From: Bacteriovoracaceae bacterium
GTDB lineage: Bacteria; Bdellovibrionota; Bacteriovoracia; Bacteriovoracales; Bacteriovoracaceae
Length of the DNA: 27,354 bases
NCBI GenBank assembly: GCA_041586955.1
Contig: JBFGZE010000040.1
Location: forward strand, 1 to 27,354
Direction: 5' to 3'
Each line of letters opens with the position of its first letter. Positions within the stretch are counted from its first letter, which is position 1. The position numbers and the translations under genes are program-made. A model generated the notes under the pieces. It saw only the letters and a list, made by a program, of their open reading frames with translations, was not told the origin of the DNA and did no database searches. Of the stretch, positions 9,855-27,354 are shown in pieces.

Positions 9855-11216
9855 ATGTTAGGCGATATGAGTAGAAACTTTAAAATAGTTTTTAATGAGA
9901 ATGATGAAGCGAAGGATGAAAAGTCATCCCAAGCAAACACGTCTTCTCGTGAGAAAGGCCATTTGAAAGTTGTTACTCCTAAGGATGTTAGGGCCGCTCG
10001 TAAAAAAGAGGATTCTTGGTCATCATTTGATATGGAGTTTGAAGAAAAATCCAAGCAAGTGAATTTGAAAACTCCAAGCAAAGAAGAGATGTCCGCCCCC
10101 AACCAAACCTTCGTTAAAATTATAGAAAATGAAGGGCAGGTGACCAATATTGATCCAAAGGATCTTAAAGAAATTATCAAAACAAATAAAGGCATTAAGC
10201 AGGTCGTCGTTGAAAAAATTGGCGTTCAAGAAGCAAGTCGAATTTCTTTAAAGTATGCAAAAGAATCATCGGTGAAATCTTTAAAGGCCTCAGATAGACC
10301 TAAGCTTGGTATAGATAAACCGGCCTTAGATATTCGTGAGTTTGAAAAAGAGCTAAATGGTGAATTCTTGGGAATCTTTATTAACGGGCCAACCTTTGAT
10401 AATAAGAATACTGTTCTCGTTATCGACCAAGACCAAGACCAAGTTCAAAATCAAGACCAAGCTCAAGACAAAAAAACTAAAGAAAGTTTACAAGTTACAC
10501 CCTATAAAGCTTTCTCGTCAGAGGATGAAGATGCATCTTTAAAGGATGTTTCCTACACAAAACATACACTTAATAGAAAATCGAAAAACCATAATGGCCA
10601 TTATTATAGGGCGAAAAACCATGTTGAATTATTTAAAGTGGGGAATTCCTATCTCGATGATTTTCATAAGGGATTGAAGAGCTTTGCCTTTTCTTCGTTT
10701 GGTCTCGATGAAGATAGGGAAAAGTCTGTTTTTGGTGTGGCGGCCTTTTTTAATTATCACGCTCATGAAAAACTTTGTATTGTCGGTGAAAAAACAGATA
10801 AGGCCTTCTACTTCAATTTTGTAAAAAATTATAAAAGAAAAAAAATAAAATTAGATGATAATGTTACGCTCGATTATTACGAGTCCAAGGGCTTTGATTT
10901 TGTGGACTTTGCTGATTTCCGCTCCCTTGAAAAAAGATTAAGAAATACTGATTTTGAGGATGTACTCGATCTATTTATCGATCAATATGATATAATTTTA
11001 TGGGATATGCCCGAAATTTCAATACTAGACCATAATAAAGAAATTTACTTTCCTGTCATACGAACATTGGACAATGTTACATTTGTCGCGAGTTCTGGCG
11101 CTTCAAAAATTAAAGAATTAGATGAATTAAAAAATTATTATAAACGTTACCAAGTTGACCTCAAGGGGATTCTTTTTCGCACAGAAAAAAATACCAAGAA
11201 AAAGGAGGGCAAATGA
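9855..11216 (+). CDS. Protein with charged low-complexity N-half and C-terminal degenerate CpsD/CapB (BY-kinase/MinD-like) domain; start may be 9867
   Basis: C-half pattern KSFAFSS...LFIDQYDIILWDMP...LDNVTFVA...LKGILF follows the CpsD scaffold; Walker A not intact; paralogous to next gene. Confidence 0.6.
   Translation: MLGDMSRNFKIVFNENDEAKDEKSSQANTSSREKGHLKVVTPKDVRAARKKEDSWSSFDMEFEEKSKQVNLKTPSKEEMSAPNQTFVKIIENEGQVTNIDPKDLKEIIKTNKGIKQVVVEKIGVQEASRISLKYAKESSVKSLKASDRPKLGIDKPALDIREFEKELNGEFLGIFINGPTFDNKNTVLVIDQDQDQVQNQDQAQDKKTKESLQVTPYKAFSSEDEDASLKDVSYTKHTLNRKSKNHNGHYYRAKNHVELFKVGNSYLDDFHKGLKSFAFSSFGLDEDREKSVFGVAAFFNYHAHEKLCIVGEKTDKAFYFNFVKNYKRKKIKLDDNVTLDYYESKGFDFVDFADFRSLEKRLRNTDFEDVLDLFIDQYDIILWDMPEISILDHNKEIYFPVIRTLDNVTFVASSGASKIKELDELKNYYKRYQVDLKGILFRTEKNTKKKEGK
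10425..10469 (+). repeat. In-frame hexamer tandem repeat (GACCAA-type, 7.5 units) encoding DQDQDQVQNQDQAQD
   Basis: gaccaa gaccaa gaccaa gttcaa aatcaa gaccaa gctcaa gac. Confidence 0.85.
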
Positions 11217-12094
11217 GTAATTTGAAATTAAAAATTAATAGACAGGAAGAAAGTCTTAGTATCGATAATGAACTTGACCGCATCCTCGGACTTGAAAAGG
11301 AAGCGCCTAGTGACGTTGCAGATGGGCCATCTGAAAAAAAGGTTCGGCCAAATCATGGAAAACTAAAAAAAGTAGAACCTATCACTAAACTGAGTAAACA
11401 GTCTAAGAAAAAAGGCTCCCGTAAGGTTAATAAATATTTTTATAAAGTTTCTAATCATCATGAATTATTTAAAATTGGATCATCTTTTTACCATGATTAT
11501 TTAGAGGGAGTAAAATCATTTGCCATTACCTCGACCGGGTATCAAATGTCTCAGCAGACAAGTATTTTGGGTCTCGCCAGCTTTTTTGATCATAAAGAGC
11601 ATATCAAAATTGGAATTGTTTCCAATAATTTAGTTCAAGGTTCATTTAAAGAAATTATAGAGCTTAGTGAGAAGGAAAAAGTTCTCATTCATGGAGATCT
11701 TGCTGTCGATGTCCATAATTTTTATGACCATTTTCATTTTATTAATCTTAGAGATTTATTGAAAATCTCCAGTGATGGAGAGAGAGAGGAATATGACGAA
11801 GTCTTTGATTCCTTTGCAGACCAATTTGATATTGTTTTTTGGGATGTTCCCGATTTGGAAGAAATACAAAGAGAATCAGAGAAATATTTTCCCATGATTA
11901 TGAAGTTTGAAAGCTTATCGATAATAGTGTCGAAAAATGTTTCAAGTAGCAAGCATTTGGATGGAATTCGTAGTTTCTTCTTAGGTTACGGAATAAATTT
12001 AAAAGGTCTACTCTTGGAGACGCAAGAGGAAGTGAATGTGAAAGATGAGAAGGGGAAAGTTAAAAAAAGAAGTTGGTGGAGGATATTTGGATGA
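11213..12094 (+). CDS. Degenerate CpsD/CapB-like protein, paralogue of upstream gene
   Basis: NHHELFKIGSSF..DY..GVKSFAITST vs NHVELFKVGNSY..DF..GLKSFAFSS; FDIVFWDVP vs YDIILWDMP; LKGLLL vs LKGILF; AGGAGG RBS, overlapping start/stop. Confidence 0.65.
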   Translation: MSNLKLKINRQEESLSIDNELDRILGLEKEAPSDVADGPSEKKVRPNHGKLKKVEPITKLSKQSKKKGSRKVNKYFYKVSNHHELFKIGSSFYHDYLEGVKSFAITSTGYQMSQQTSILGLASFFDHKEHIKIGIVSNNLVQGSFKEIIELSEKEKVLIHGDLAVDVHNFYDHFHFINLRDLLKISSDGEREEYDEVFDSFADQFDIVFWDVPDLEEIQRESEKYFPMIMKFESLSIIVSKNVSSSKHLDGIRSFFLGYGINLKGLLLETQEEVNVKDEKGKVKKRSWWRIFG

Positions 12095-13590
12095 AAAAGC
12101 TAAATATTGTTTTTGATGAAATAACGATAATCAGTTTCCCTTTCCTTGGAAAACTTTTAAAGCGCTATTATATTCTTAGTCTTGCAGTTGTATTTTCTGT
12201 TCTCACATTCTTTTATTATTTTTATACTGCTCAAAATACAATTCATTCATTAGGAAAAGGTTTTAAAAATGTCCACGAGGAAGGTTCCTCACCGACTTCG
12301 GCCCTCAGTGCTGCAATTGGTGAAAAACCAACTTTTCTTTCTGAGCAGGAAGTTTTAGCGATTGTTAATGGAGTTGACTTTCGTTATAAGTTAGCATCTG
12401 TCCTCTATGAACACCCAGAGTTTCATAAGCTTAACTTTAATGGTATTGAGGCCAAGGGGCATAAATTAATAGGGGATTTTATTGGTCATTGTTCCAATGA
12501 TAAAAAATGTATTGTTTTAACACTTTCTCAGGCAATCAATGGGTTTGTGATTGTGACTCAGGATAAGAATGTTGAAAATCATTTTTCCACTGTCGTTCGC
12601 ACAAGAGATGAATTAACAACGAGTGTGATATTGGAATCTATGGAAAAGGTTTTAATTGATGTTCGTTTGGCCATGATTCGTTATAATATTGACCAACAAA
12701 TCGCGATGACGACGAGTTTAATTAAAGGTAAAAATAAAGAAATCAAAGACCTGAATTTGCTCTCGACTCGGGCTAATGTTAATAAGCTAAGAGAAGAGTT
12801 AAAATCGATTGATCGGGAAATTGCAGTTTATTCCCATAATTATTATTCTCAATTAGAGCAATTAAAAAATGCAAAGAGTATCTATGATGAGACAAAGCAG
12901 ACAGTTAATAGAAAAATAAGCTCTACAGTTCTAAAAGCAAGGAAACGTTCTGAACAATTGGCCGAAACAATTGCTTCACTTGAAGGTGACATACAAAGTC
13001 TCGAGGGGACGGGGAGAGCAGTTCGTGGCACTAATAAAGCAGTCTTAGCTTCCCTGAAGAAGAAACTGAAAGATTCGAGAAAAGAGTATAAAGAATATGC
13101 CAAGTATGATAAATCTCAAGGTCATTTTGATAACTTTCAGGATGGCAAAAACAAATCATATAATATGTCAGAATTTGATTATAAGGTTCTTCAGAAAAGC
13201 TTTAAAGAAACAAAGAAAACATTTGAAAATCTTACTAAAAAGAAAGAGGGACTCGTTAAAGAGTTAACTTCCCTTGGTCAAATACTAGAAGAAAATAAAT
13301 CGACTCTTGGTTATATGGAAGTTCTTCAGTCTAAATTGGTTCAGCTTAAGCTCGCCCAATCGACGATTGTTTCGGATATTGTTTTCGACAAATTTAACTT
13401 TGGGAAGCGAGCTTATAAAAAAGTTAATTTGACCCGAACTATTCTGTTCTTCTTTGCGGTTACTTTTTTTGGCCTTATCCTCGTATGCGCTATTCGTTAT
13501 CTTTTCGATGATAAAATCTATGATGTACGTGAATTACAAGAAAACTTCAAAGACCTAAAAATCATTGGTAATACACCAGATTTTAATTAA
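12091..13590 (+). CDS. Polysaccharide co-polymerase / chain-length determinant (Wzc/GumC-like) without fused kinase
   Basis: Two TM segments flanking a long coiled-coil; C-terminal YLFDDKIYDVRELQ..F.DL.IIGNTP matches the Wzc/CapA juxtamembrane motif. GGAGGA at 12078-12083 and ATGA overlap favour start 12091. Confidence 0.8.
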   Translation: MKKLNIVFDEITIISFPFLGKLLKRYYILSLAVVFSVLTFFYYFYTAQNTIHSLGKGFKNVHEEGSSPTSALSAAIGEKPTFLSEQEVLAIVNGVDFRYKLASVLYEHPEFHKLNFNGIEAKGHKLIGDFIGHCSNDKKCIVLTLSQAINGFVIVTQDKNVENHFSTVVRTRDELTTSVILESMEKVLIDVRLAMIRYNIDQQIAMTTSLIKGKNKEIKDLNLLSTRANVNKLREELKSIDREIAVYSHNYYSQLEQLKNAKSIYDETKQTVNRKISSTVLKARKRSEQLAETIASLEGDIQSLEGTGRAVRGTNKAVLASLKKKLKDSRKEYKEYAKYDKSQGHFDNFQDGKNKSYNMSEFDYKVLQKSFKETKKTFENLTKKKEGLVKELTSLGQILEENKSTLGYMEVLQSKLVQLKLAQSTIVSDIVFDKFNFGKRAYKKVNLTRTILFFFAVTFFGLILVCAIRYLFDDKIYDVRELQENFKDLKIIGNTPDFN

Positions 13591-13882
13591 TTTTTTTTTT
13601 TCTTTTACTTTTATATAAAAAGATAAGAGGAAGAACTGAGACTCCAATATCCTTAGCATGCTCCCGCCAATTGGCATTTAAAGTAAAAGAATCGTAATAT
13701 TCCTTGATAAAAACTAAACCTAATAGAATCGTAATGGATTGATATTTTTTCAATTTGAGGATTTTGTGACATGACAAAAGAATTATTGAACCGCCGATTA
13801 AATGGCAAATGATGTCCAATGGAATACCATAGTGTTTTGTTTTAGATATATACATCAGAAGGTTTTTAATCGCTAGGGGCAT
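13583..13882 (-). CDS. Small membrane protein (YfiM/VanZ-like D..H...KE..D...D pattern)
   Basis: DIICHLIGG, GLVFIKEYYD, EHAKDI between hydrophobic segments; -10 element upstream. Confidence 0.6.
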   Translation of the reverse strand: MPLAIKNLLMYISKTKHYGIPLDIICHLIGGSIILLSCHKILKLKKYQSITILLGLVFIKEYYDSFTLNANWREHAKDIGVSVLPLIFLYKSKRKKKIN

Positions 13883-13949
13883 ATCTAAATTCTAGCATAA
13901 AGGAGTTAAAAATACTTGATAATGTCGCAAGAGGCGATAGAATAATATT
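13883..13949. promoter_or_regulatory. Divergent sigma70-type promoters, each -10 hexamer 6 nt before an ATG
   Basis: + strand TTGATA (13916-13921) N16 TAGAAT (13938-13943) AATATT ATG; - strand TGcTAGAAT (13897-13889) TTAGAT ATG. Confidence 0.55.
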
Positions 13950-14495
13950 ATGAAAAAAGTCTTTATTTTTATAATAAGTTGGGTTTTATGGTCTACGCCT
14001 GTCTTGGCAAACAAGGCCAAGGACACGGAAGTTCCTTCTTTGAGCGAGATTGTCTTGCCTTCCGAAGTAAAAGGTCTTAGTAAAGCAGCTGGATCTGTTT
14101 TTTATAGTCCCTTTATTAAGGGAAAAGTTCTTGTTCCAGTGAACATTTGGGGTAGTGTTAAAAAATCAGGCCTTCATTTTGTGCCTATGGATACCAGTTT
14201 GATGAAAGGCCTTTCTCTTGCTGGTGGCGTTTTTTCAGAAAGTAAGTTGGATAATGTACGCCTGACTCGAAAAGAGGGGAGCGAGACTAAAAATTATTAT
14301 ATTGATTTCACTTCTTCATCTAAGGATATTGAGGCGCAAAACTTAAAGTTAAGGTCCGGGGATATTATTTTTGTCGATCGCGATTATTTTCGTGAAAATC
14401 GTGCCTATTATACATCTTTGATTGGTGTTTTTATCAGTATGCTTTCCGGTATCCTTATTTACCGTCAAGTTAAAAGGAATCAAAAAACTCCTTAA
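13950..14495 (+). CDS. SLBB-domain polysaccharide export (Wza/OPX-like) short protein
   Basis: Signal peptide; VNIWGSVKKSGLH...LMKGLSLAGG...NVRLTR...LRSGDIIFV SLBB pattern; C-terminal hydrophobic helix. Confidence 0.8.
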   Translation: MKKVFIFIISWVLWSTPVLANKAKDTEVPSLSEIVLPSEVKGLSKAAGSVFYSPFIKGKVLVPVNIWGSVKKSGLHFVPMDTSLMKGLSLAGGVFSESKLDNVRLTRKEGSETKNYYIDFTSSSKDIEAQNLKLRSGDIIFVDRDYFRENRAYYTSLIGVFISMLSGILIYRQVKRNQKTP

Positions 14496-15609
14496 ATGAT
14501 TCACCTGCTTTCTTCCAGCTAAATTGCTCGAAACATGCCTTTCGACTATTGGCATATTCCTTTCTCTGGTCAATTGTGAGAATTGGAACTTGTTTTATTT
14601 GGTAACTTTTTTGATCGGTATATAAATAAATTCCGGGGAGGCCCTTTAGGATTTCTGACGCCCCAACGTCCTTTTCTGTCGTACTAATATGCATACCGCT
14701 TGATGCCGCCTCAATTAAAACTAGGCCAAAGGGTTCGTACTGGGTTGGAAAAACAAAATGGTCACAGAGATTATAAAATTTGGGCAATTCTTTAGTGAAG
14801 TTTATTTCGGCGACGGTAATTTCCTCTGGCCATGTCCATTTACTGAAACTTTCAGGTTTGCCAATGATAATAATTTGGGGACTCTTTTCTTTGGCAAGGC
14901 GGTCTAAAACCACTCCCAGTCCTTTTCGCTCATAAGCACCCACAAAAAGATGAATTGGCCGCGAAGGATCAATTTTCTGCATTTGTGGATAGCGATCTTT
15001 TAATTGTTCAAAAAGAGTGATGCGATCAATATCGAGTACCGAGAACCTTTCAGTGTTCACTCCTGAATAAATGGTTTTGAGATTACTTTTAGGGATAGAG
15101 AAAGTTTCTTGCATATACTCTGATACGAACTTCGCCAGGCAGCTGAATTTCACTCCAGGCCTAGTGAAAACCTTTTTTTCCATATAGAGAAAATACCCAA
15201 ATAATACTTTTTTATAAAAGTGTACCCAGGCACTCATTTTTTTTTGAAAGAAAAAAGGTGCCCATTGATGGTGAACGAATTGAATATTAATAATGTCGGC
15301 AGATGGTGCCGCAATTCCAATCGATATTCGTTTAAAACCCTTTTGGAGGAAGATGTTTTGATAAATTAGGCAAAAGGCATGATAAAAAACTACTTTGAGT
15401 AGAAAGGGATAGAGGTTTGGAAAAGGAACCCTTATCCATTTTACCTTACCTTTAAGCTCAGGAAATAGTTTGTCGGGATGGTCGCATGTGTAGGCGATAA
15501 TTTTTACTGCATCGATTTCGCTTGAGGGGATCTTTTTAATCGTTTCAATCATGGCATGGCTATGGCCAATTTCTAAAAAAAAATCGTGAACAAATATTGC
15601 TAATTTCAT
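14470..15609 (-). CDS. Glycosyltransferase family 4 (GT-B)
   Basis: IYSGVNTERF, FVGAYERKG, FVFPTQYEPFGLVLIEAASSG (EX7E). Confidence 0.92.
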   Translation of the reverse strand: MKLAIFVHDFFLEIGHSHAMIETIKKIPSSEIDAVKIIAYTCDHPDKLFPELKGKVKWIRVPFPNLYPFLLKVVFYHAFCLIYQNIFLQKGFKRISIGIAAPSADIINIQFVHHQWAPFFFQKKMSAWVHFYKKVLFGYFLYMEKKVFTRPGVKFSCLAKFVSEYMQETFSIPKSNLKTIYSGVNTERFSVLDIDRITLFEQLKDRYPQMQKIDPSRPIHLFVGAYERKGLGVVLDRLAKEKSPQIIIIGKPESFSKWTWPEEITVAEINFTKELPKFYNLCDHFVFPTQYEPFGLVLIEAASSGMHISTTEKDVGASEILKGLPGIYLYTDQKSYQIKQVPILTIDQRKEYANSRKACFEQFSWKKAGESFKEFFDSF

Positions 15610-15726
15610 AATGATCTTGTCGTACTATTTTTGAGTAGTCATTACCCGATCAAAAAGATTCGGAAGAAAACACCAGTATTAAGAAAAGTTAATTTTATGA
15701 CGACAAGAATTAAGAATAAGAGGTTT

Positions 15727-16968
15727 ATGGATAACTTAATAAATAATAATCTTTTCCATGTTTTACTTTTGATGAGCTTTTGCTTGTCTTTGGTACTATA
15801 CATCATATTGTATTTTTCTGGACGAGCGGATATTCGACTTCTTAGAAAGTTAATATATATTCCGGCGCGTAAGTCCAATAGTGGCGCCATTCAACTGGGT
15901 GGTGCACCCTATGCTCTTACTATTTTCATAATTTTGGCCTGTGTTATCATCGGTAATGAAGAAATAATCTCCATGCGACCCTTTGAGTTATCACTTCTTA
16001 AAAAATGGGTTTTCGCTGCCGCGATCATTTTTGTCTATGGATATCTCGATGATAAATATGAATTAAGACCTATCGTGAAGTTAATCGGACAGGTTATTGC
16101 GGTCACATTTTTTGGAATATTCCAAAGTCAATTATTGATGCCGGAGTTTGCTTCTGTCGCATTTCTTGTTTGTTGTTTTTGGGGCCTAGGTGCCGTTAAT
16201 GGAACAAATTTACTTGATGGCCTCGACACGATGACGATAAAGCTTTCAGCGATAAGCTTTTCTTCATTAATTATAATGGGCCATATTTTTAATTACCCAT
16301 TTATAATGGAATTATCAGTGTTATTTTTTATTCCTCTTGTTTCTTTTTATCTTTTTAATATGGAGCCTGCCAAAATTCATTTGGGCGAAATAGGTGGGAG
16401 TTTTATTGGTTTTGTTATTCTTCTTCAATGTTCTCTATTATTCGGTCATTTACACCAAACCGAGTCGGCCATTTTCTCAGCAGGCATTAGCTTAGTACCA
16501 CTTACTTTACCAATGTCAGAGCTAGCGGTCAGTTTTTTACGCCGTCTGGTGAATCGAAAATCACCTTTCAAGGGGGATAAGTTACATTCCCATCATATTC
16601 TAAAAAATTATTACCATTTAAGGGCCGCGCAAGCGGCCACATATTTATCTATTGCTTACGCTCTTATAATGGCGGTTACTTTAATTTTGGGTCATTTTGT
16701 TCACCCTTTTATTGCATTGATATGCCAATTTTCATTGCATTTATGTGCTTATATTATTTGTTGTGGGCGTTATTGGATGTCAGATGATTCAATCCAACTT
16801 AATCCAAAGTCATTGTTTGAGTATTTACGAAAAAAAGATGTCCTAATCATTGAGTCGAAGGCCATTGATGATTTTAAAATAACTATCTTGGCCGAAGGAG
16901 AAGAGCAAGATATTGAGATGGATAAAGATGATTCATCTATTAATGATGATAAGGAATCTGCCGCGTAA
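15727..16968 (+). CDS. WecA/TagO-like polyprenyl-phosphate HexNAc-1-phosphate transferase (MraY family)
   Basis: LGG, GYLDDKYEL, NGTNLLDGLD, FNMEPAKIHLGE.G, RR...SPFKGDKLHSHH; many TM helices. AAGAGG RBS favours ATG 15727 over the TTG at 15631. Confidence 0.88.
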   Translation: MDNLINNNLFHVLLLMSFCLSLVLYIILYFSGRADIRLLRKLIYIPARKSNSGAIQLGGAPYALTIFIILACVIIGNEEIISMRPFELSLLKKWVFAAAIIFVYGYLDDKYELRPIVKLIGQVIAVTFFGIFQSQLLMPEFASVAFLVCCFWGLGAVNGTNLLDGLDTMTIKLSAISFSSLIIMGHIFNYPFIMELSVLFFIPLVSFYLFNMEPAKIHLGEIGGSFIGFVILLQCSLLFGHLHQTESAIFSAGISLVPLTLPMSELAVSFLRRLVNRKSPFKGDKLHSHHILKNYYHLRAAQAATYLSIAYALIMAVTLILGHFVHPFIALICQFSLHLCAYIICCGRYWMSDDSIQLNPKSLFEYLRKKDVLIIESKAIDDFKITILAEGEEQDIEMDKDDSSINDDKESAA

Positions 16969-17009
16969 AACTTTTGTTAAATCTAAAAAGCGTATACAAT
17001 AAACATACT

Positions 17010-18017
17010 ATGCTTGGCCCAAAATCAATTCTTATTACAACACCTGATTACCCTCCTAAAAAAGGCGGACTTTCAACTTATACTTTAAATATTGAAAACA
17101 CTTTAAATGAAATGGGTTATTCCTGTGATCGTCTGGTTTGGAAATCTACAAAAGAGTTATTGAATACAAGATTTGAGAAAAAATATGACCTTATGTTGCA
17201 TATTCATTATATGGCCGGTTTTTTCCTCCAAAAATATGGACATAAACATATAAACTTTCTTCATGGCTCAGAAATTATGTTTACTTCCAAGAACATAGTC
17301 AATCGTCTTTTAAAAAAGATGATGAAAAGGCGAATGTTATCCTATTTAGAAGCATCCTATTTAAATGTTTTTATTTCTCAATTCACACTTCATAACATCG
17401 CTGAGATCGGCTTAAAATTAGACTATGGAAGGGATATAGTGCTTCATAATTGCATTGATCTCTATTCTAAAGAAATGGTTAAAAAGGCTTACCCTCAAGA
17501 TAATTGGAAACTTGTTTGTATCGCTCGAGATGTCCCTCATAAAAACTTAGATGGTGTTTTAGAGTTTGCGCATTGGTTAGGAGAAGTCTCAAAACGCCAA
17601 GTCACAGTTTGGATGAATGCAAAAAGAATTATGAAAAGTACTTGGGTAACTGTTAGAAGTCTTCCTCTTTTAGACGATTCTTCTCGTGATGAATTTTATA
17701 AAAAAGTACACTTTAACCTTTTATTCTCTCTTGATCATAGGGATAAAGGTTTTTATGAAGGTTTCGGGCTAACTCCTCTTGAAGCCGCTCAATGGGGAAC
17801 GCCCTCTTTAGTTTTTAATACTGGCGGTTTACCAGAATCAGTCCACCATGACTTTAATGGCTGGGTCTTTAAAAAGATGGATAAGCAACAAGTTCGCATA
17901 TTTGTTAGTCACCTGCGGCCAGAAATTTATGAAAAATGGTCAAATAATGCGTATCATCACTCTTGGCAATCGCATGGATTGGATCAATATAAAAAATTTT
18001 TAAAAAGGGTTTTATGA
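17010..18017 (+). CDS. Glycosyltransferase family 4
   Basis: TPDYPPKKGGLSTY, HGSE, EGFGLTPLEAAQWG.P, TGGLPESV; ATG 17010 preferred to TTG 16974. Confidence 0.9.
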   Translation: MLGPKSILITTPDYPPKKGGLSTYTLNIENTLNEMGYSCDRLVWKSTKELLNTRFEKKYDLMLHIHYMAGFFLQKYGHKHINFLHGSEIMFTSKNIVNRLLKKMMKRRMLSYLEASYLNVFISQFTLHNIAEIGLKLDYGRDIVLHNCIDLYSKEMVKKAYPQDNWKLVCIARDVPHKNLDGVLEFAHWLGEVSKRQVTVWMNAKRIMKSTWVTVRSLPLLDDSSRDEFYKKVHFNLLFSLDHRDKGFYEGFGLTPLEAAQWGTPSLVFNTGGLPESVHHDFNGWVFKKMDKQQVRIFVSHLRPEIYEKWSNNAYHHSWQSHGLDQYKKFLKRVL

Positions 18018-19174
18018 AGAAAAGAAGGATTCTTGTTCTTAATTCTCCTTATCTTGGAGGTGCTGAGCGAAGTGGAATTGTTCAAGCGGCCTTACTACAG
18101 AAAGAATTTGATATTTTCATTCCTGAGTTGATTCGCGGGGATGGCAAAGAAATAATTAACTTAATTAATAGTGAATTTAAAACCGATGTATGCATCAAAC
18201 GGTTTATTTATCCAAATGCTCTCTTCTCCATTAGTAGAGAGACACCTATTTTTAAAATGATCATCTCAGTTTTTCAAAGTATTTTTCAAATATTTGACCT
18301 CAGTAATGAAATCAATCTTAATCATCAAACGACTATTTGGGTAAATGGGAATAAGGCCGGTTTTCTATTTTTTATTTTGGCCTTGAAAAATAAGTTTAAA
18401 GGGACCTTTTACTGGCACTTTCGAGATTATCCTAGTCAAAGGCCCATTTGGTCTTGTATATGGCGTCTATTGGGCCTAAAGAGGTGCTTTGACCTTGTGC
18501 TCATTGGGAATTCAAAGTCTGTCTCCAAAAGTTTACACCAATTAAAAATTCATAACTCTTCAGTGCAAACCATTTATAACCCCTCTGGCCTGGCCGAAAA
18601 TAAAAAGTTTTCCAAAGGTATCCGCACTATTGGTTTGGCATCAATGTTTGCTCCTTGGAAGGGGATTCACTCTATTCTTTTATGGGTCGGCCTTTATGAA
18701 AAGGAATTACAAGAAATTGGTATTGAGAAAATTAATATTTATGGTGGACAGATCTATCAGACTAGCGGAGGTCATGCTCAATACGATAAGGCGCTCATCG
18801 ACTTAGTTGAAAAATTCAATATCAATATTGTCGAATTCAAAGGCCTTAAAGCACCATCTATAATTTTTGATGAAATTGATCTTTTGATTCATTACTCCCT
18901 TCGCCCGGAGCCATTTGGGCGTATTCTTTTGGAGGCCTTTTCTCGAGGAATACCTACCATCTCAACATCTCTAGGTGGTGCAAACGAATTAGTAGAAAAG
19001 GCCCATGCGCTTAAGGTGATTCCCTACGATTATGCGGGGCTATTTCACACAATTAAAAAACTCACAATTGAATTTCCCTCAACGGCAACTCTTATTTCAG
19101 AGAATGAATTGAAGGCATTTCGTTATTTCGAGGACTTAGCTGAGAAGCAATTGAAAAGGTGTTTTGTTGACTAA
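18014..19174 (+). CDS. Glycosyltransferase family 4
   Basis: LGGAERS, WHFRD, PWKG, PEPFGRILLEAFSRG.P; overlapping start/stop with upstream GT. Confidence 0.9.
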   Translation: MKKRRILVLNSPYLGGAERSGIVQAALLQKEFDIFIPELIRGDGKEIINLINSEFKTDVCIKRFIYPNALFSISRETPIFKMIISVFQSIFQIFDLSNEINLNHQTTIWVNGNKAGFLFFILALKNKFKGTFYWHFRDYPSQRPIWSCIWRLLGLKRCFDLVLIGNSKSVSKSLHQLKIHNSSVQTIYNPSGLAENKKFSKGIRTIGLASMFAPWKGIHSILLWVGLYEKELQEIGIEKINIYGGQIYQTSGGHAQYDKALIDLVEKFNINIVEFKGLKAPSIIFDEIDLLIHYSLRPEPFGRILLEAFSRGIPTISTSLGGANELVEKAHALKVIPYDYAGLFHTIKKLTIEFPSTATLISENELKAFRYFEDLAEKQLKRCFVD

Positions 19175-19522
19175 AAATTGGGGCAATATAGAGAATCGGC
19201 CATCAATCTTATGGCCCTTTCGCTATTCCCTATAAATGATGAATTCTTCTTCATGATTAAATATTATGACAAGTTATTTCGAGGGATTAGGCGTACAAAA
19301 GAATGGTTAAGAAGCACCTTGGCCCAATTTTGACAAAACTTTATCGATTTGAGGCAGTAAGGCCTTAAAATTAACTTATCATAGTAAGGTGATGGAAGAG
19401 TGATTGGTCGAGGGTGAGGGTCTGGATGGACCTCGCTTTGCAGAGCGAATGGGTTAGGCGAATTTATCCTATACAAAAATATTTTTTAAAAAAATACTTT
19501 TTGGTATAAAATGAGGATTATG

Positions 19523-19714
19523 ATGAAAGAAAAAAAGACCGTTGAAACAGAAAATAAAAAAGTGTCTAAAAAGAAAAGACCTTATCAAAAACCAACTATT
19601 GTGACAGAAGAATTAATGTCTTTTGGGGCGCTATGTAATGGTACCTCGACGGGAGGCCGTAAGGCCGCTGCAGGAGCACCAACTTTTTGCAACCCTAGCC
19701 GTTTGACATCATAA
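19523..19714 (+). CDS. RiPP precursor peptide (63 aa; alternative starts 19511/19520)
   Basis: Lys-rich leader with KRPYQKPTI (YxxPx[L/I] RRE-binding motif) then Gly/Ala/Ser/Thr-rich core CNGTSTGGRKAAAGAPTFCNPSRLTS; stop abuts kinase ATG; GAGGA at 19513-19517. Confidence 0.85.
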   Translation: MKEKKTVETENKKVSKKKRPYQKPTIVTEELMSFGALCNGTSTGGRKAAAGAPTFCNPSRLTS

Positions 19715-20650
19715 ATGGAATTGTCTTTGGGCCTTCGCAATCCTCAATTGTTTGAGCAGAAAAAGACCTTAATTAAGAAATTAGAAGATATAGACCTATC
19801 CCAATACCCCATCCATGATAAAAAGCAATTATCTCTTTTTGGCCTAGAGCTTAACCTCGTTAATTACCAAGATTCTGATTTTTTTTCAACAATCGAAAAG
19901 TTCTACCCCGCTTCATGGTGGGGTGAGTTCAATACCAATGGAACTCAGGTTCACCTTCTTAGTTGTGAAGATCTAGGAATGAGCTCTGATGAATTTGAGA
20001 ACGAATTGATGCCAGATTGCATCGATTGGCAAGATGAAATGGGCCATATTGGTATCCAACGGGACTTTATAGGACTTAATAAAAATGATAATCAAATTAT
20101 TATCATAACGGGGAAAGGAGCTGGAGATGGCTGGTTTAATTTTTTAAGATGGTATTTGCCACGGCAGTTATTAAAAAATAACCAAGTGATCTTGCATTCA
20201 AGTGCAGTTGTGAAAAATGGACAGGCCTATGTTTTCCTTGGGCATTCAGGAGCGGGTAAGTCCACTGTCACCGAATTGTCTCCTGATGGACATGTTCTTG
20301 GGGACGACATGAATTTTGTTGAAGTCTCGGACGGTCAATTATATGCTCGCTCCGGAGGGATTGGAGGACGATTTTTTCCACATGCCGATTGCTCTGAAAG
20401 TTTCCCTGTAAAGGCCTTTTTTTGGCTAAACCAAAGTTCTCAAAATAAAATTTATCCTTTTTCAAAAATTGAAGGTGTTAGGTTGATTCTTGCAAGTATG
20501 ACTAACATCTTCTGGGAAACCCTAGAAGAAAAGGAACGACAATTTGCTTTTGATTTTGCTATTCAAATGAATGAACTTGGGCGAGTCTATAAGTTAGATT
20601 TTGAAAAGAAACCAACTTTTTGGGAGGTCATTGATGACTATTGTTTATAA
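19715..20650 (+). CDS. HPr kinase-like P-loop kinase (PadeK/ScmC-like peptide kinase)
   Basis: ILHSSAVV...VFLGHSGAGKST...LGDDMNFV: His, Walker A and DD motifs of the HPrK C-terminal fold. Confidence 0.8.
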   Translation: MELSLGLRNPQLFEQKKTLIKKLEDIDLSQYPIHDKKQLSLFGLELNLVNYQDSDFFSTIEKFYPASWWGEFNTNGTQVHLLSCEDLGMSSDEFENELMPDCIDWQDEMGHIGIQRDFIGLNKNDNQIIIITGKGAGDGWFNFLRWYLPRQLLKNNQVILHSSAVVKNGQAYVFLGHSGAGKSTVTELSPDGHVLGDDMNFVEVSDGQLYARSGGIGGRFFPHADCSESFPVKAFFWLNQSSQNKIYPFSKIEGVRLILASMTNIFWETLEEKERQFAFDFAIQMNELGRVYKLDFEKKPTFWEVIDDYCL

Positions 20651-20915
20651 AAGATCGAAAGATCTTCCCTGGCAAGAAATTCACAATGAGATTATTATTC
20701 TCAATGCCTCTGAAGGGGAAGCTGTCCAATTAAATGAAACGGCTTCATTTTTATGGGATTGTTTAAAAAGCCCGCTCGGTATCGAGGAGTTAGTATTAAA
20801 TACTTGCGATCACTTTGAAGTCCCACCAGATCAGGCAAAAGAAGATATAAATATTTTTCTTAAAGACCTCCAGAGTAAAAACCTTATTCAGGCAGTCGAT
20901 GGCCAATCAAGATGA
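20634..20915 (+). CDS. PqqD-family RiPP recognition element (RRE) 1
   Basis: LNETASFLWDCL...IEELV...DHFEV...AKEDI..FL..L...NLI; GGAGG RBS at 20623-20627 gives ATG 20634. Confidence 0.9.
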   Translation: MTIVYKRSKDLPWQEIHNEIIILNASEGEAVQLNETASFLWDCLKSPLGIEELVLNTCDHFEVPPDQAKEDINIFLKDLQSKNLIQAVDGQSR

Positions 20916-21354
20916 TTTTCTCTTTATTCCTCATCGCGGGCAGAGTATGTTCCCCCTCATTCGCGATGGTGATCAGATTATCGTTGAAAAAATAAAGCGT
21001 AGTCCAATTCCTGGTGATATTATTCTCTATCGCGACATTGACACTAAAGAGTGGGTCGCTCATCGTTATTTAAAAAAAAATACCTTAAAGGGCGACTTTT
21101 CCCTAGTCTTTGACCAAGTTAATGAAGCAGCATTTATGGGTTTTATACGAGGGATTAGACGTCAAGAAAACATTTATCTTTGGAGTCAGATGGGCCATCC
21201 TCTAAAGGGATTTTTTCTTCGCGCCACTGTTTACCGAACGAAAAACAGGCCACGTTGGCTGAGGTGGAGCATTGTTTTTATTTTGCTTATTTTTTCCAAG
21301 GCCATTTTAATTTTGAGCTCAACCAATACCAATCGTATTGAAAAGCTTCAATAA
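20899..21354 (+). CDS. S24/S26-family peptidase (Ser-His type)
   Basis: GQSMFPLIRDGD, GDIILY, VAHR, KGD motifs; C-terminal hydrophobic segment, no N-terminal anchor. Confidence 0.85.
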   Translation: MANQDDFLFIPHRGQSMFPLIRDGDQIIVEKIKRSPIPGDIILYRDIDTKEWVAHRYLKKNTLKGDFSLVFDQVNEAAFMGFIRGIRRQENIYLWSQMGHPLKGFFLRATVYRTKNRPRWLRWSIVFILLIFSKAILILSSTNTNRIEKLQ

Positions 21355-22219
21355 TTCCATCTTTAAGCATGTGCTTTGTAAGCCAATAACTCACTCCTCG
21401 CTGTCCTGTTTGCCAGATTAAGGCAGGCGCTGGTGAGATATTCCATTTTTCATCTCCGCCGGGAGGTGGCCAAATACCTAAATGTTGATCAATATGATGA
21501 TGAATGAACCAAAGCGTTGATGTTATGCCTTTTTTTAATTTTAATTGATTGGCCTTTTCCCAGATAAGTGGCCAATTAAATGTTCCAACTTTAAGTAGTA
21601 GATAAATATCGATTAACCAGAACAATTTTAAAAAATTATGTTGGTTTGCATAATGGCCAATTAGGTGCAGTAATAAATGAGAATCATCTAAAGTTTTGAG
21701 ATGCTTAAAAGGATCTAATAAATTCGTTTTCCAGTCAAAGTTATTTTCTTCCTGATAAAAGCATTTATGGTGAAGTTCAATCACTAATTCTTTTTCGCCA
21801 ATTAATTTAGTAAACTCCCATTTATGGTGATTACCTTGCCAATCCCCCTTTTCCCTTGGGCAATAACCCAATTTAATGATCTCTTTTTCAAATTGTGCCC
21901 ATTTGTTTAATGGTAAAAGAAGATCTAGGTCTGAGGTGTGGCGAGAGCCAAGGTCTTGATAAAACCTGGGTATTAAGGCGTGGCCCTTGAGCACGATTAT
22001 AGAGTTCGATAAATCATTTGGTAATTGGTCGAGGTTGTTGAGCTCTTCTTGATAGGAATGGTTTAAGTCCCATTGCTGTAACCACTTTTTTTTACCACGG
22101 GGATTAGGGCAACCTTGACAGTATTTATAGAGAAAGCCTTCGATTAAGTGTTCTTGATAGAGACAGTCAGGCTTTGCGCCCTCAGGTGGATCCAGTAGAA
22201 ATGAAATAATAGATTTCAT
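21287..22219 (-). CDS. Nucleotidyltransferase family protein (NTP_transf_5-like)
   Basis: IVLKGHAL...Y...GSRHTSDLDLL, IELHH, LLHLIGH, L.WLIDI motifs. Confidence 0.88.
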   Translation of the reverse strand: MKSIISFLLDPPEGAKPDCLYQEHLIEGFLYKYCQGCPNPRGKKKWLQQWDLNHSYQEELNNLDQLPNDLSNSIIVLKGHALIPRFYQDLGSRHTSDLDLLLPLNKWAQFEKEIIKLGYCPREKGDWQGNHHKWEFTKLIGEKELVIELHHKCFYQEENNFDWKTNLLDPFKHLKTLDDSHLLLHLIGHYANQHNFLKLFWLIDIYLLLKVGTFNWPLIWEKANQLKLKKGITSTLWFIHHHIDQHLGIWPPPGGDEKWNISPAPALIWQTGQRGVSYWLTKHMLKDGIIEAFQYDWYWLSSKLKWPWKK

Positions 22220-22290
22220 GGGTTTATTATAACGATGTTTAGATAAAATGGATGCTTTTTTTTAAGTTTAAACTAAGGTAGTATTGCTTT
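22220..22290. promoter_or_regulatory. Divergent promoters, each -10 hexamer 6 nt before an ATG
   Basis: - strand TATAAT (22231-22226) AAACCC ATG; + strand TAGTAT (22279-22284) TGCTTT ATG. Confidence 0.55.
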
Positions 22291-22584
22291 ATGGAAAAGG
22301 TCAAAATAAAATCTCGCATTGCCTTCAAAAAGATTGCAAAAGAAACCTATGTTTTTGATTATTATGGTCAAGGAAAAGGCCATAAATTAAATGAGGTCGC
22401 TTCGTTTATATGGCATCTTCTGGATGGATCCAATACACTTGAATCAATTAGTCAGAAAATGACCCAAGAGTTTTCGGTAGATCGTATGACGGCCCAAAGT
22501 GATCTTGAATGCTTCATCAATGAACTTAAGTCTTTAGAACTCCTTTCGGGTAATGATAATGACCAGCAAAGACAATCGGCCTAA
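22291..22584 (+). CDS. PqqD-family RiPP recognition element (RRE) 2
   Basis: LNEVASFIWHLLDGSNTLESI...EFSVD...AQSDL..FI.EL...ELL. Confidence 0.92.
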   Translation: MEKVKIKSRIAFKKIAKETYVFDYYGQGKGHKLNEVASFIWHLLDGSNTLESISQKMTQEFSVDRMTAQSDLECFINELKSLELLSGNDNDQQRQSA

Positions 22585-23611
22585 AGGCGATCTTTTAGAT
22601 CAGGCCATGCGCCAATCCTACCAAGAATGTAATCCTCTTTTTACTACCATCGAAATTACCCTCGATTGCAATTTAAAATGTAAGCATTGCTATAATTACG
22701 ATCGTGAGGAGCAAAATGTACCTAATGGCCAGGCCATGTCTAGAGAAGAGATTCTGGAGACAATAGCTGCAGTGGCCGCAGAAGGGGCATTATTTATTTG
22801 CTTAACCGGTGGGGAGGCGCTCCTCCATCCACATTTAGAAGACTTCATTCAAGAGATTATTAAGCAACATTCTGTTGCCCGATTAAAAAGTAATGGCCTT
22901 TTGCTTAATGAGAAAAAAATTGAAAGGTTGGCGCGCTTAGGAGTCGATCTAATTGATATTAGTCTCTATGGTGCGAGCGAGGAAAGTTATCGTAATTTTA
23001 CTGGGTCAGGGTCTGCATTCACTCGCGTCATGAATGCTATTGATGCTTGTATCGCTCAAAAAATGAATATCTCACTTAGCATAATTCTTAATCGCTCAAA
23101 TATTCATGAATTGGATGCTATGGTGAATATGGCCCGCGAAAAAGGAGTTTCTTTTCAATTCTCAGATGAGATAACCTCCCGATATGATGGCGATACAGCT
23201 CCGCAGCAGCTCGCTCTTTCGGAAGCCGATTATGAGCAATTGCTAAAAGGTCCTTTTAGTGAATATTTTAACCACTATAATGATGATAATACCTTTCAGT
23301 GCAATTGTGCCCGTAGCGTATGCGGTATTAGTGCTTTTGGCGAGGTCTATCCTTGTATTGGTGCACCGCTCAAGTCTGGAAATCTAAGAAATCAAAGTTT
23401 TGCTCAAATTTGGAAAGAGTCTAAGGTTCTAAACGACATCCGCAATATTCAAAAAGAAGACTTTAAAGAGTGTAATAAATGCGATTTTAAAAATTATTGT
23501 AACCGCAGCTCAGGTGGTATTTATATTAATACTGGGGAGTATAAAGGTTGTGATGAGGATTCCCTGATGAAGGCCAGGGTTCGATCTAAGGTTGCCGCTG
23601 AAGATTCTTAA
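22553..23611 (+). CDS. Radical SAM/SPASM domain peptide maturase (start may be 22559)
   Basis: CNLKCKHC, LTGGEALL, SNG, ISLYG; SPASM region QCNC...GEVYPC...GNLR..SF..IW...CNKCDFKNYC...GC. Confidence 0.93.
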   Translation: MIMTSKDNRPKGDLLDQAMRQSYQECNPLFTTIEITLDCNLKCKHCYNYDREEQNVPNGQAMSREEILETIAAVAAEGALFICLTGGEALLHPHLEDFIQEIIKQHSVARLKSNGLLLNEKKIERLARLGVDLIDISLYGASEESYRNFTGSGSAFTRVMNAIDACIAQKMNISLSIILNRSNIHELDAMVNMAREKGVSFQFSDEITSRYDGDTAPQQLALSEADYEQLLKGPFSEYFNHYNDDNTFQCNCARSVCGISAFGEVYPCIGAPLKSGNLRNQSFAQIWKESKVLNDIRNIQKEDFKECNKCDFKNYCNRSSGGIYINTGEYKGCDEDSLMKARVRSKVAAEDS

Positions 23612-24414
23612 AGAATTAAACGTCCCTTTTTTCTCAGAAAAATCAAACTGCTTTGAAAAAGAAAGTACCCGCTACCTGCATAGGCCAGTCCTAATAATGC
23701 TAGATGAACAAATTCCTGCTGAGGAAAGGGAATTGCTGTTGTTTGGGCAAGAATTTTTCGAACATTGGTTAACAGGATACCATGGGGAATAATTGTCGTC
23801 ATTAGGACTGCTAATTTAGAGGGTAAAATTTCAACCGGAAAAAAGGCCCCTGATAGCGCGCCCAATAAAGCATTTGTTTGAAAAATAAGAGTTTGGCCGC
23901 GACCGCTAATATTGATTAAAGAAAGAGCTAACAAGGCAAACCCGTAAAAGCTAATAAGCGCCAGGGAGGTTAAAAAGAGGGCATATAAAAAAGACAAAAG
24001 TGAAAAGCTAAGTCCTAATCCCATGGAAACGAGAACAATAAAACCCATCCTTAAAAAAGGTCGCCAAATATCGGCAATGATCTGAGAAATAAAATAGCGA
24101 TTCCATGAAATAGCGCGAGAAATAAATATCTCATGGATATGTTCTCTAAAAATAGTCTTATAAGAAGTAATCAGACCGGTAAGAACTTGAATTGGAATAC
24201 CTAAAAATATTTCTCCAACCACCATAAAGCTAAAGAAGTCAGTTTGGTAAAAGTCAAGATGCTCTTGAATTGATGGGCCAAAGGCCTTTGAGGCATACCA
24301 ATATATAATAAGACCCAATGATGAAGAGAATAACTCTAGGAGTAGAGTCATCCAGCTACTAAAACTACCGCGCCAATTTTCTTTAATTAAATAAATAATT
24401 AATTGGGATATCAT
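23608..24414 (-). CDS. ABC-2 type transporter permease
   Basis: About six hydrophobic segments, LSGAFFPVEILP motif; start overlaps ATPase stop. Confidence 0.85.
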   Translation of the reverse strand: MISQLIIYLIKENWRGSFSSWMTLLLELFSSSLGLIIYWYASKAFGPSIQEHLDFYQTDFFSFMVVGEIFLGIPIQVLTGLITSYKTIFREHIHEIFISRAISWNRYFISQIIADIWRPFLRMGFIVLVSMGLGLSFSLLSFLYALFLTSLALISFYGFALLALSLINISGRGQTLIFQTNALLGALSGAFFPVEILPSKLAVLMTTIIPHGILLTNVRKILAQTTAIPFPQQEFVHLALLGLAYAGSGYFLFQSSLIFLRKKGRLIL

Positions 24415-25040
24415 AATAGTGTCTCCAAATTGATTTCGTCATAATCATTGTTGCCACTATGTCGATGATCAGTCAGGACTAAAGTCTTTTCCTGAAAGAA
24501 AGTATTCATAAGGAGGGACAATTCTAAAGCGAGTTCTTGTGAGAGGTTTTGAAATGGTTCATCCCAAAAATAAAAATGAGCATTATGGGAAAGAGCTATT
24601 GCAATCTTAATTAATTGCTTCATCCCGTCGGAGCATTGGTTGACCTGGACTGGTAAACTTTTGTTGAGCGTTTCTATCATGACAGGATAATTAACAAGTA
24701 ATGTTTTGATCTCATCTATCGTCAAACATTGATGAGGTGTTAAATGTTGAAATAGAGTGAAGTTCTCTATCCCAGTTAAATGTGGAAAGAGAGCGTTACC
24801 GCAAGAGGGGAGCCAATTGATTTTGGGATTTACTATACCGCGATAGTGGACACTTCCTTTCGGTGGTAAAAGAATACTTGCCATCAATTTTAATAACGTT
24901 GTTTTACCGATACCATTCTTTCCTTTAATGAGATTCATTTTGTGGAAAGGAATTTTTAGATTGAATTGACTAAAGATAGGACGATTATGATAATGAAAGG
25001 TAAGGTCTTGGCAAATGATGGCATTTTCTTGTTCAGCCAT
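24411..25040 (-). CDS. ABC transporter ATP-binding protein
   Basis: GKNGIGKTT Walker A, CSDGMKQ signature variant, FWDEP Walker B, LTDH switch. Confidence 0.9.
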   Translation of the reverse strand: MAEQENAIICQDLTFHYHNRPIFSQFNLKIPFHKMNLIKGKNGIGKTTLLKLMASILLPPKGSVHYRGIVNPKINWLPSCGNALFPHLTGIENFTLFQHLTPHQCLTIDEIKTLLVNYPVMIETLNKSLPVQVNQCSDGMKQLIKIAIALSHNAHFYFWDEPFQNLSQELALELSLLMNTFFQEKTLVLTDHRHSGNNDYDEINLETLL

Positions 25041-25386
25041 TTGTCTCTACCCTATGCTTTAAATTGAGCAAATGAATGGCCTTAACAAATTGCAACCATT
25101 TTTCAAAATTCTCTTTCTCGGTAAAATTAAAGCGACATCCAATATTGTTTCCTTTTTGCCATACTTTCTTTGCGTTCAGTTTATATTTATTTTTTCCAAG
25201 TAAAGTAATTTCAAACTCAAAGGCATCGGGGAACTGGGAATCGTTAGGTGTTTCAAAACAAATACCTCCAAGTCCTATATCAATAGTCTTAATATTGTGT
25301 GAATCCTTCATCTCAGGAATAAAAAGCTCATTGGAGATGTGCTTTAATGAGTAGCGAGGAAATATACGTTGTCCTTCTTTGTTCAT
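25033..25386 (-). CDS. Stand-alone PilZ-domain protein
   Basis: QRIFPRY (RxxxR), DIGLGGICF (D/NxSxxG variant), AKKVW and IGCRF strands. Confidence 0.8.
   Translation of the reverse strand: MNKEGQRIFPRYSLKHISNELFIPEMKDSHNIKTIDIGLGGICFETPNDSQFPDAFEFEITLLGKNKYKLNAKKVWQKGNNIGCRFNFTEKENFEKWLQFVKAIHLLNLKHRVETNG

Positions 25387-26322: not shown

Positions 26323-27354
<1,032 letters not shown>

Follow-up and report, generated by a model that had tools for sequence, protein, structure and literature searches.

An LPP-like peptide cassette with a radical SAM enzyme in a Bacteriovoracaceae polysaccharide locus, and its recurrent but not obligatory link with glycan genes

Does a peptide-maturation cassette that lies within a polysaccharide locus have anything to do with the glycan genes around it? 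The question is raised by a stretch of 27,354 nt from a marine Bacteriovoracaceae bacterium of predatory type (contig JBFGZE010000040.1 of assembly GCA_041586955.1), the whole of which we call the window; its own genome is coded G000 and other genomes carry G-numbers. A first-pass annotation of this DNA had proposed a peptide-glycan hybrid system. We scanned the 28 window proteins against Pfam and NCBIfam and find that the window holds two separable units, an envelope-polysaccharide locus and a self-contained peptide-maturation cassette. The link between cassette and glycan genes is real and recurrent but not obligatory, because phyletic, positional, tree and other-family counts together say so. 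The hybrid proposal thus stands as far as the association goes, but it had left out a radical SAM (S-adenosylmethionine) step and a giant protein resembling the sortase PorU.

The first unit is a conserved locus at 9855-19174 whose far flank is formed by a PilZ gene and a 142-aa gene (25033-25811). The second, at 19511-25040, occupies the junction between the last gene for a GT4 glycosyltransferase (GT), named GT386, and the PilZ gene. In order, the features are:

9855..11216, + strand: 453-aa protein, first gene of the glycan locus after pheT; C-terminal half paralogous to the 293-aa gene, no Pfam family
11213..12094, + strand: 293-aa paralogue of the 453-aa gene, with a Walker-B-like motif (FDIVFWDVP)
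12073..13590, + strand: 505-aa protein with a long coiled coil and transmembrane (TM) segments at 32-50 and 451-469
13583..13882, - strand: 99-aa small membrane protein, conserved in the glycan loci of relatives
13950..14495, + strand: 181-aa SLBB-domain protein, a short OPX/Wza-like export component (PF22461, 28.7 bits, above cut-off; EpsE E 1e-5, below cut-off)
14470..15609, - strand: GT4 glycosyltransferase, 379 aa (PF00534 E 1e-11)
15631..16968, + strand: WecA/MraY-family polyprenyl-phosphate sugar-phosphate transferase, 445 aa, at least 8 TM segments (PF00953 76 bits; TIGR02380 E 5e-19, below cut-off)
16974..18017, + strand: GT4 glycosyltransferase GT347 (Pfam), the marker for the phyletic profile
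18014..19174, + strand: GT4 glycosyltransferase GT386 (Pfam), last gene of the glycan module, overlapping GT347
19175..19510, no strand: 336-bp gap from GT386 to the precursor
19511..19714, + strand: open reading frame (ORF) of the precursor peptide, 67 aa
19715..20650, + strand: HprK-like P-loop kinase (LppK/PadeK-like)
20601..20915, + strand: PqqD-type recognition element (RRE) 1, of the lasso/LPP type (PF05402 58 bits)
20899..21354, + strand: S24/archaeal-type signal-peptidase-I-like leader peptidase (PF00717 25.3 bits, above cut-off; TIGR02228 E 1e-7, below cut-off)
21287..22219, - strand: PF14907 nucleotidyltransferase (NTase), LppN/PsmN-like (97 bits)
22291..22584, + strand: PqqD-type RRE 2, partner of the radical SAM enzyme (PF05402 58.6 bits)
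22553..23611, + strand: radical SAM/SPASM peptide maturase (PF04055 88 bits, PF13186 38 bits; cluster motif CNLKCKHC)
23608..24414, - strand: ABC-2 type permease, 268 aa (Pfam)
24411..25040, - strand: ABC ATPase, 209 aa, partner of the permease (Pfam)
25033..25386, - strand: PilZ-domain protein, flank of the glycan locus (PF07238 28.5 bits)
25383..25811, - strand: 142-aa protein without family, always paired with PilZ

What the hybrid proposal had been built on is in place: the precursor gene follows WecA-GT4-GT4 (15631-19174) on the same strand after 336 bp (19175-19510), its core ends in Ser (RLTS), and kinase and NTase are both encoded. The genes that had been listed are thus present, but the list missed the two PqqD proteins, the signal-peptidase-like peptidase, the radical SAM/SPASM enzyme, the ABC-2 pair, the PilZ protein and the 142-aa protein.

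We searched 401 genomes sampled across the phylum with a kinase profile (E ≤ 1e-10). Matches were found in 53; the window's own genome is one of them, and 28 of the 100 other genomes from its family also have the kinase. Orthologues of GT347, scored over the same genomes with all matches at E ≤ 2e-65, occur in 27/401, every one in the window's family. Among the 101 family genomes, GT347 is accompanied by the kinase in 22 and stands without it in 5; the kinase occurs without GT347 in 7, and 67 have neither. The cassette is thus carried by 22/27 GT347-positive versus 7/74 GT347-negative genomes. At least 9 of the 22 genomes with both genes have them on separate contigs, and the G325 kinase is 170 kb away from both ends of the contig that carries it. 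Fisher's test gave p = 8.5e-12 on genomes and 6e-4 on genera, values that overstate the case because relatives share history.

Position tells a similar story. We mapped 46 loci (the window and 45 further ones, about 10 kb on each side; 25 in the window's family and 21 in other families), using profiles of the parts that were made from the first six. At 19/46, the cassette has glycan genes no more than 10 kb away. Orthologues of the window's glycan genes are present in the fetched stretch at 13/25 family loci and at 0/21 others; 12 of these 13 include a GT or WecA gene, and G391 has only the coiled-coil and paralogue genes. Gene orders vary: GT386 is followed by the precursor in G000, G009 and G152, an ABC ATPase gene overlaps its end in G011, the giant and the cassette together stand between GT386 and PilZ in G050 and G344, and further loci show other orders. 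Since GT386 directly abuts PilZ and the 142-aa gene in five genomes that carry the cassette elsewhere, the cassette, alone or accompanied by the giant, fills a single junction in a locus that is complete in itself apart from this. Judged from these sequences, insertion and excision would both be compatible with the junction.

In other families, unrelated GT4 or polysaccharide genes stand directly beside the cassette at 6/21 loci, in four genera of four families (by the Pfam families of flanking ORFs). One genus has a GT4 gene that adjoins the NTase gene and is surrounded by Wzc-like, CapD-like and UDP-GlcNAc-epimerase genes; a second has four or five GT4 genes and an SLBB-like gene; a GT4 gene adjoins the permease in the third; and a methyltransferase-GT4 fusion overlaps the end of the permease gene in the fourth. 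The same flanking-ORF scan found no glycan gene at the remaining 15/21 loci, nor at the 12 loci of the window's family that lack the orthologous genes. Mapped on the kinase tree, adjacency to glycan genes would have to change about 10 times, of which branches with good support force only 2-3. As a baseline, GT4 profiles matched in 5 places only in the whole 3.46-Mb G000 genome, roughly 3% of which lies within 10 kb of one, a rough figure since the profiles come from 2-3 sequences. The link is more than chance. We know of no earlier counts that connect a cassette of this type with glycan genes, the comparison being with the text, not the supplementary domain tables, of Popov et al. (Nat Commun 2026, PMC13381572).

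Apart from its surroundings, the cassette recurs as a set. Across the 46 loci the radical SAM enzyme was found at 45, the precursor at 44, PqqD and the peptidase at 43 each, the NTase at 42, and the ABC pair at 22 (17/25 in the family, 5/21 elsewhere). Fusions join kinase and peptidase (G316 and G400), radical SAM enzyme and peptidase (G024), PqqD and radical SAM enzyme (G033, with PqqD at the N-terminus), NTase and peptidase (a Nitrospirae metagenome-assembled genome, MAG), and peptidase and giant protein (Acidobacteriota); the parts therefore form one pathway.

This set is best understood beside the clusters (LppA/K/B/S/D/N) for linear polyphosphorylated peptides (LPPs) that Popov et al. describe as restricted to Bacillota (PMC13381572). 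LPP precursors carry the leader motif YxxPxVLxHQxIxFETxxS, their core Ser3 is polyphosphorylated by an HprK-like kinase, and the clusters also encode an MsbA-like pump, an uncharacterised NTP transferase, an RRE and a signal peptidase of archaeal type whose cut falls after T-1 (PMC13381572). RRE-dependent cleavage by the signal-peptidase-like enzyme is established there, and in Bacilli the clusters for LPPs and for paeninodin alike lie within polysaccharide loci, where the neighbouring genes, in the authors' words, "could contribute to peptide modification", with their roles left unknown (PMC13381572). The window likewise encodes a precursor whose leader reads YxxPx[V/I] and whose position +13 is aromatic; an HprK-like kinase, a discrete RRE, a signal-peptidase-I-like peptidase and an NTP transferase stand together; and there is an exporter, no macrolactam synthetase, and the embedding in a polysaccharide locus. 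It differs in its exporter, a two-gene ABC-2 pair (268 aa and 209 aa) in place of an MsbA-like pump, and in having a radical SAM/SPASM enzyme and a second RRE as core parts, whereas the linear LPPs have no further class-defining enzyme; the term "radical SAM" occurs 0 times in PMC13381572. Its 27-aa core is strongly conserved and has two Cys, whereas LPP C-termini are variable. Its host phylum, Bdellovibrionota, is another, and it is linked to the giant PorU-like protein. The window cassette is therefore an LPP-like set plus a predicted cross-linking step and a different exporter. In terms of predicted gene content, what is new here is a radical SAM step added to an LPP-type pathway, outside Bacillota. 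The full-text literature that we searched held no description of a cassette with HprK-like kinase, radical SAM/SPASM enzyme and signal-peptidase-like enzyme, nor of a link to C25/PorU proteins.

Several features are shared with the lasso peptide clusters of paeninodin (PadeK) and pseudomycoidin (PsmK, PsmN), namely the HprK-like kinase, the C-terminal Ser, the PF14907-type NTase, the PqqD-type RRE and a [Y/W]xxP leader (PMC8498205, PMC6993621). The signal-peptidase-like leader removal and the radical SAM enzyme of the window cassette set it apart, and a lasso peptide is rejected: the Asn-synthetase-like cyclase (C) and the transglutaminase-like B2 peptidase are absent from the 28 window proteins. 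Sactipeptide and ranthipeptide systems (SkfB, AlbA, PapB) resemble the cassette in that a radical SAM/SPASM enzyme and an RRE go with a precursor whose core contains Cys. The match to AlbA (E 2e-22) is below cut-off, all NCBIfam matches being far below theirs, and the thioether in the window product is putative. To our knowledge, those pathways include no kinase, NTase or signal-peptidase-like enzyme. The uncharacterised SynChlorMet/GeoRSP systems, defined by NCBIfam models only, bring together a ScmC-like kinase-fold protein, a PqqD relative and radical SAM/SPASM enzymes; we rejected membership, as every match is below the family cut-off (ScmC E 5e-11, 42 vs 125 bits; ScmD E 1e-6, 28-30 vs 100; ScmE E 7e-26, 91 vs 400).

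The peptide is a real gene, because homologues precede the kinase gene at 49 loci (45 distinct sequences). Its 67-aa ORF, which terminates in ...NPSRLTS, more likely starts at M4 or M5 (19520 or 19523), behind AGGA, as alignment with relatives indicates. A Lys-rich N-terminus is followed by the YxxPxI leader motif and a core of the form LCNG...GGRK...P..C...RLTS. All 45 distinct precursors have two Cys, 44 have G-x-[RK][RK] between them, and the last residue is Ser in 44 and Thr in one. Ser67 is the sole invariant hydroxyl residue in six aligned precursors, in which Y and P of the leader Y25-x-x-P28-x-I30 are also invariant, and F38 stands at +13 as in the published LPP logo. With A40 at -1 in register with the LPP leader motif, the leader is predicted to be cut after FGA, leaving a 27-aa core. 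Three-Cys precursors with a YxxPx[IV] leader and a terminal Gly-Ser were seen in Acidobacteriota, Nitrospirae and a deltaproteobacterial MAG, at no fewer than 9 of 13 loci, where they sit between the radical SAM and kinase genes. Those of Acidobacteriota and Nitrospirae (...RPEEAVLGHCK...; L039:9342-9527, L044:9252-9485, L053:9304-9483, L031:9431-9592) belong to cassettes that begin with PqqD, followed by radical SAM, precursor, kinase and giant genes; here the giant carries the peptidase domain at its N-terminus as a fusion.

Turning to the enzymes, the kinase and the peptidase are recognised at superfamily level only. The kinase matches ScmC (E 5e-11) and HprK-related kinase A (E 2e-6), both below cut-off; it has the P-loop GHSGAGKST, and G-S-G-x-G-K-x-T and GDD are invariant. 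The peptidase shows a Ser motif (GQSMFP), a His motif (AHR) and a C-terminal TM segment. Among solved structures, RRE 1 is best matched by 9x90_B, a PqqD-family chaperone of the lasso type (E 7e-7), and the radical SAM enzyme by the thioether-forming SkfB (E 4.5e-14); sequence search gave no useful solved relatives for the kinase and the NTase. The structure model of the NTase (pLDDT 91.9) is closest in fold to the MenT toxins, JHP933 and ANT(2'')-Ia, which are nucleotidyltransferases with hydroxyl acceptors. G79, D97 and D99 are invariant, and the G and D-x-D motifs are kept in 34 sequences. The same fold likeness has been reported for PsmN by Zyubko et al. (PMC6993621).

A functional tie between the glycan genes and an LPP-like cassette with a radical SAM step is the reading to which we would give about an even chance. 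The RREs would hold the leader, the radical SAM enzyme would cross-link the core via one or both invariant Cys, and the kinase would phosphorylate the invariant C-terminal Ser67. On that phosphate the NTase would then build with a nucleotide or a sugar, as PsmN does; the peptidase would cut after A40, and the ABC-2 pair would export the 27-aa product. Most likely, the glycan link would consist in sugars or glycosyltransferases of the locus feeding the NTase-dependent step, or in peptide, glycan and giant jointly making up a structure of the cell surface; that peptide and polymer are covalently bonded is possible, but nothing points to it. The two biochemical premises of the first-pass annotation are in print: PadeK-type kinases phosphorylate the C-terminal Ser (reviewed in PMC8498205), and PsmN is required for placing one or two hexoses on the phosphate of phospho-Ser in pseudomycoidin (PMC6993621). 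By analogy with these kinases, the terminal Ser is the likely phosphorylation site in the window peptide, and the HprK-like kinase is predicted to act on it.

A number of points weigh against such a tie, starting with the shared history behind the Fisher values and the rough GT4 baseline. Within-genus contrasts agree in 4/5 cases (g16, g20, g43 and g7) but not in g4, and only five genera vary internally. The steps of chemistry at the window locus are all inferred from genes. LppN was inactive in the heterologous host (PMC13381572). Core position 3, the Ser3 phospho-site of LPPs, is N43 of an invariant C-N-G in the window peptide, whose invariant Ser is C-terminal, and the LPP site is therefore not kept. 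The glycan locus carries polymer-export parts (co-polymerase-like, SLBB) that a simple tailoring role would not need.

The remaining objections are also what speaks for functional independence of the two modules, a tentative alternative that we regard as possible and clearly the less probable: the cassette would be a mobile unit that has landed in, or been inherited beside, a variable low-GC polysaccharide island, and co-occurrence would reflect shared descent or genome content. GC is 0.32-0.40 across the 9-26 kb region versus 0.39-0.43 in the upstream housekeeping genes. Independent occurrence of the modules, which the first-pass annotation had named as grounds for abandoning the hybrid idea, is partly what we see: no glycan gene was found at 27/46 cassette loci, and where the cassette is missing the glycan locus is still whole, with its own flanks. 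The glycan locus occurs in five genomes that have no cassette; seven have the cassette and no GT347, among them G164 and G391 with intact cassettes and giants. The expected co-occurrence, borne out in the window's family (22/5/7/67), does not extend to the 24 kinase-positive genomes of other families, all 24 of which are without a GT347 orthologue. The 2-3 adjacency changes forced by well-supported kinase-tree branches point the same way. Set against all this are the 22/27 versus 7/74 contrast within the family, including the genomes with the modules on different contigs, the unrelated GT4 clusters that adjoin the cassette in four further families, the rough chance expectation of about 3%, and the same pattern published for Bacilli (PMC13381572).

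The interest lies in peptides of the LPP and paeninodin type, whose products and roles are unknown and whose describers could note only that capsule loci house the clusters. In a distant phylum, the core enzymes of this type together with a radical SAM enzyme now have a glycan link that can be measured, one that is phyletic, positional and repeated with unrelated GT4 clusters, and a tighter one with the giant PorU-like surface protein. Should peptide, glycan and giant be one structure, bacteria would be seen to build their surface in a new manner; should they not, the cassette still stands for a class of peptides that has gone unstudied and whose core is conserved to an unusual degree.

The specific form that the first-pass annotation had favoured is unlikely in our judgement. 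It holds that nucleotidylation turns phospho-Ser into a nucleoside diphosphate (NDP)-like donor, which is then attached to the glycan that WecA and the GT4 enzymes make, be it undecaprenyl-linked or exported, giving a peptide-decorated surface polymer. Such donor chemistry is plausible and, going by the structure model, would be compatible with the NTase fold, which appears to be a true nucleotidyltransferase fold with its metal-binding Asp pair kept. The PsmN-dependent hexose sits on the phosphate (PMC6993621), the product of the related LPP cluster went undetected as free peptide in its native host (PMC13381572), and a WecA/MraY-family enzyme and polymer-export-like parts are encoded in the same locus. 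The transfer step, however, is pure inference, the Pfam and NCBIfam scan found no oligosaccharyltransferase or ligase family in the window, and the cassette has its own exporter and in most lineages does without this glycan locus. That the core is so strongly conserved argues for a specific protein partner.

In the glycan locus itself, an initiating polyprenyl-phosphate transferase (PF00953) and three GT4 genes are present, as expected of a surface-polysaccharide locus, but the Pfam and NCBIfam scan found no Wzx or Wzy family in the window. In relatives, a 519-aa gene with roughly 10 TM segments and no Pfam family stands between the 99-aa and SLBB genes; its product may be a polymerase or a ligase. 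The window is without it (13583-13950), and a homologue, 34% identical, is found at C103:6659-8113 of G000, a small contig on which it adjoins a GT4 gene. "Incomplete", as the locus had been called, is thus a fair word for the window. At the head of the locus, two paralogous family-less proteins come directly after pheS and pheT: the 453-aa and 293-aa proteins share 29% identity, and a third copy at C84:5947-6807 of G000 is 60% identical to the latter. The 453-aa protein, which has orthologues at the same place in relatives, weakly matches the tyrosine autokinase model TIGR01007 (E 0.0065) and possibly contains a degenerate BY-kinase/ParA-like domain; comparison of the 293-aa protein with a Wzc-like protein was not significant. 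The 505-aa protein is polysaccharide co-polymerase-like in shape, judged by topology only and with no Wzz family match. Of the co-polymerase/OPX/BY-kinase parts, then, SLBB scores above its cut-off in a protein of only 181 aa, the co-polymerase is recognised by topology only and the BY-kinase at E 0.0065. As a main reading we rejected the ABC-2 pair as the missing Wzm/Wzt of this locus, because cassette loci that have no glycan genes can still have the pair, whereas glycan loci that have no cassette lack it.

A different partner for the peptide is suggested by the giant protein of 2000-3500 aa, ending in a Peptidase_C25 domain, that adjoins the cassette at 14/25 family loci and 7/21 others. 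These numbers are too low, since the gene is 7-10 kb long and encodes its C25 domain at the far end. Counted as open frames of at least 1400 aa, giants occur in 41/401 genomes among the matches listed (69 weaker matches fall outside the list), and 38 of those 41 have the kinase; 15/53 kinase-positive genomes are without a giant among the matches listed. The giant is a more constant partner of the cassette than the glycan genes are. Its last 560-710 residues best match PorU (NF033707), the sortase of the type IX secretion system (T9SS), at 181-213 bits, below the 420-bit cut-off, and the catalytic His and Cys are invariant in 18 sequences. PorU attaches cargo to anionic lipopolysaccharide (LPS). 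The giant differs in being a predicted lipoprotein of 2500 aa, encoded outside the window, with a sub-cut-off score and its own Cys-bearing C-terminal sorting tail: in Bdellovibrionota, giants have an N-terminal AACG lipobox-like signal and a tripartite tail in which GGGCS, its Cys invariant, is followed by a hydrophobic helix and basic residues. The ABC ATPase gene of the G024 cassette has a CPBP protease gene as neighbour, whose product matches the JDVT-CTERM protease MrtJ above cut-off (95 vs 75 bits); tail and protease together hint at a dedicated sorting system for the giant (L139:8212-15792 on contig C10 of G000, L013:7795-15246, L015:6478-16332, L014:787-1227). When searched for a T9SS, G000, which is 88% complete, gave no match for SprA_N, a model whose control matched nowhere either, and one for PorP_SprF (28 bits).

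From these data one could propose that the peptide is a substrate, inhibitor or acceptor/linker in sortase-like transpeptidation by the giant C25 lipoprotein, the glycan mattering only where the structure is glycan-anchored. We consider this improbable. The kinase in 38 of 41 giant-bearing genomes among the matches listed, the adjacency and the Acidobacteriota fusion favour it, as do the PorU match, the invariant His-Cys dyad and the G-x-[RK][RK] of the core. Yet the giant of G000 (2526 aa, 181 bits vs PorU) is on another contig, C10, with no cassette or glycan genes beside it, 15 of the 53 kinase-positive genomes show no giant among the matches listed, and binding or cleavage of the peptide by the giant is hypothetical. 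Equally doubtful is the combined version, in which the terminal phospho-Ser of a cross-linked peptide would be coupled via the NTase to a WecA/GT4 glycan or glycolipid and the PorU-like domain would use this peptide-glycan as surface acceptor for the giant itself or its cargo. If true, predatory bacteria and several other phyla would have, in a ribosomal peptide, their own counterpart to the anionic LPS on which the T9SS anchors its cargo.

The 336-bp gap between GT386 and the precursor gene showed no + strand terminator-like site and no Rfam match at E ≤ 1; promoter-like sites numbered 4 versus 1.9 +/- 1.4 in shuffles, a scan that does not rise above them. The equivalent gap in G009 is only 58 bp. 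A G+C-richer stretch lies within the gap at 19385-19450, with no Rfam match at E ≤ 1 and no ORF that has relatives. Beyond the PilZ flank, a partial 16S rRNA gene (26323-27354) runs off the contig end, and the contig break hides what comes next. Finally, some other cassette loci have neighbours of their own. One genus (G385, G203 and G238; L109 (=L027), L111 and L118) has, only a few kb away from its cassette, a pair of error-prone polymerase genes of the ImuB/DnaE2 type. In G298, a group II intron reverse transcriptase/maturase in two split ORFs lies ~4 kb upstream of the cassette (L126:5423-6390), and an ECF (extracytoplasmic function) sigma and anti-sigma pair stands directly before it.

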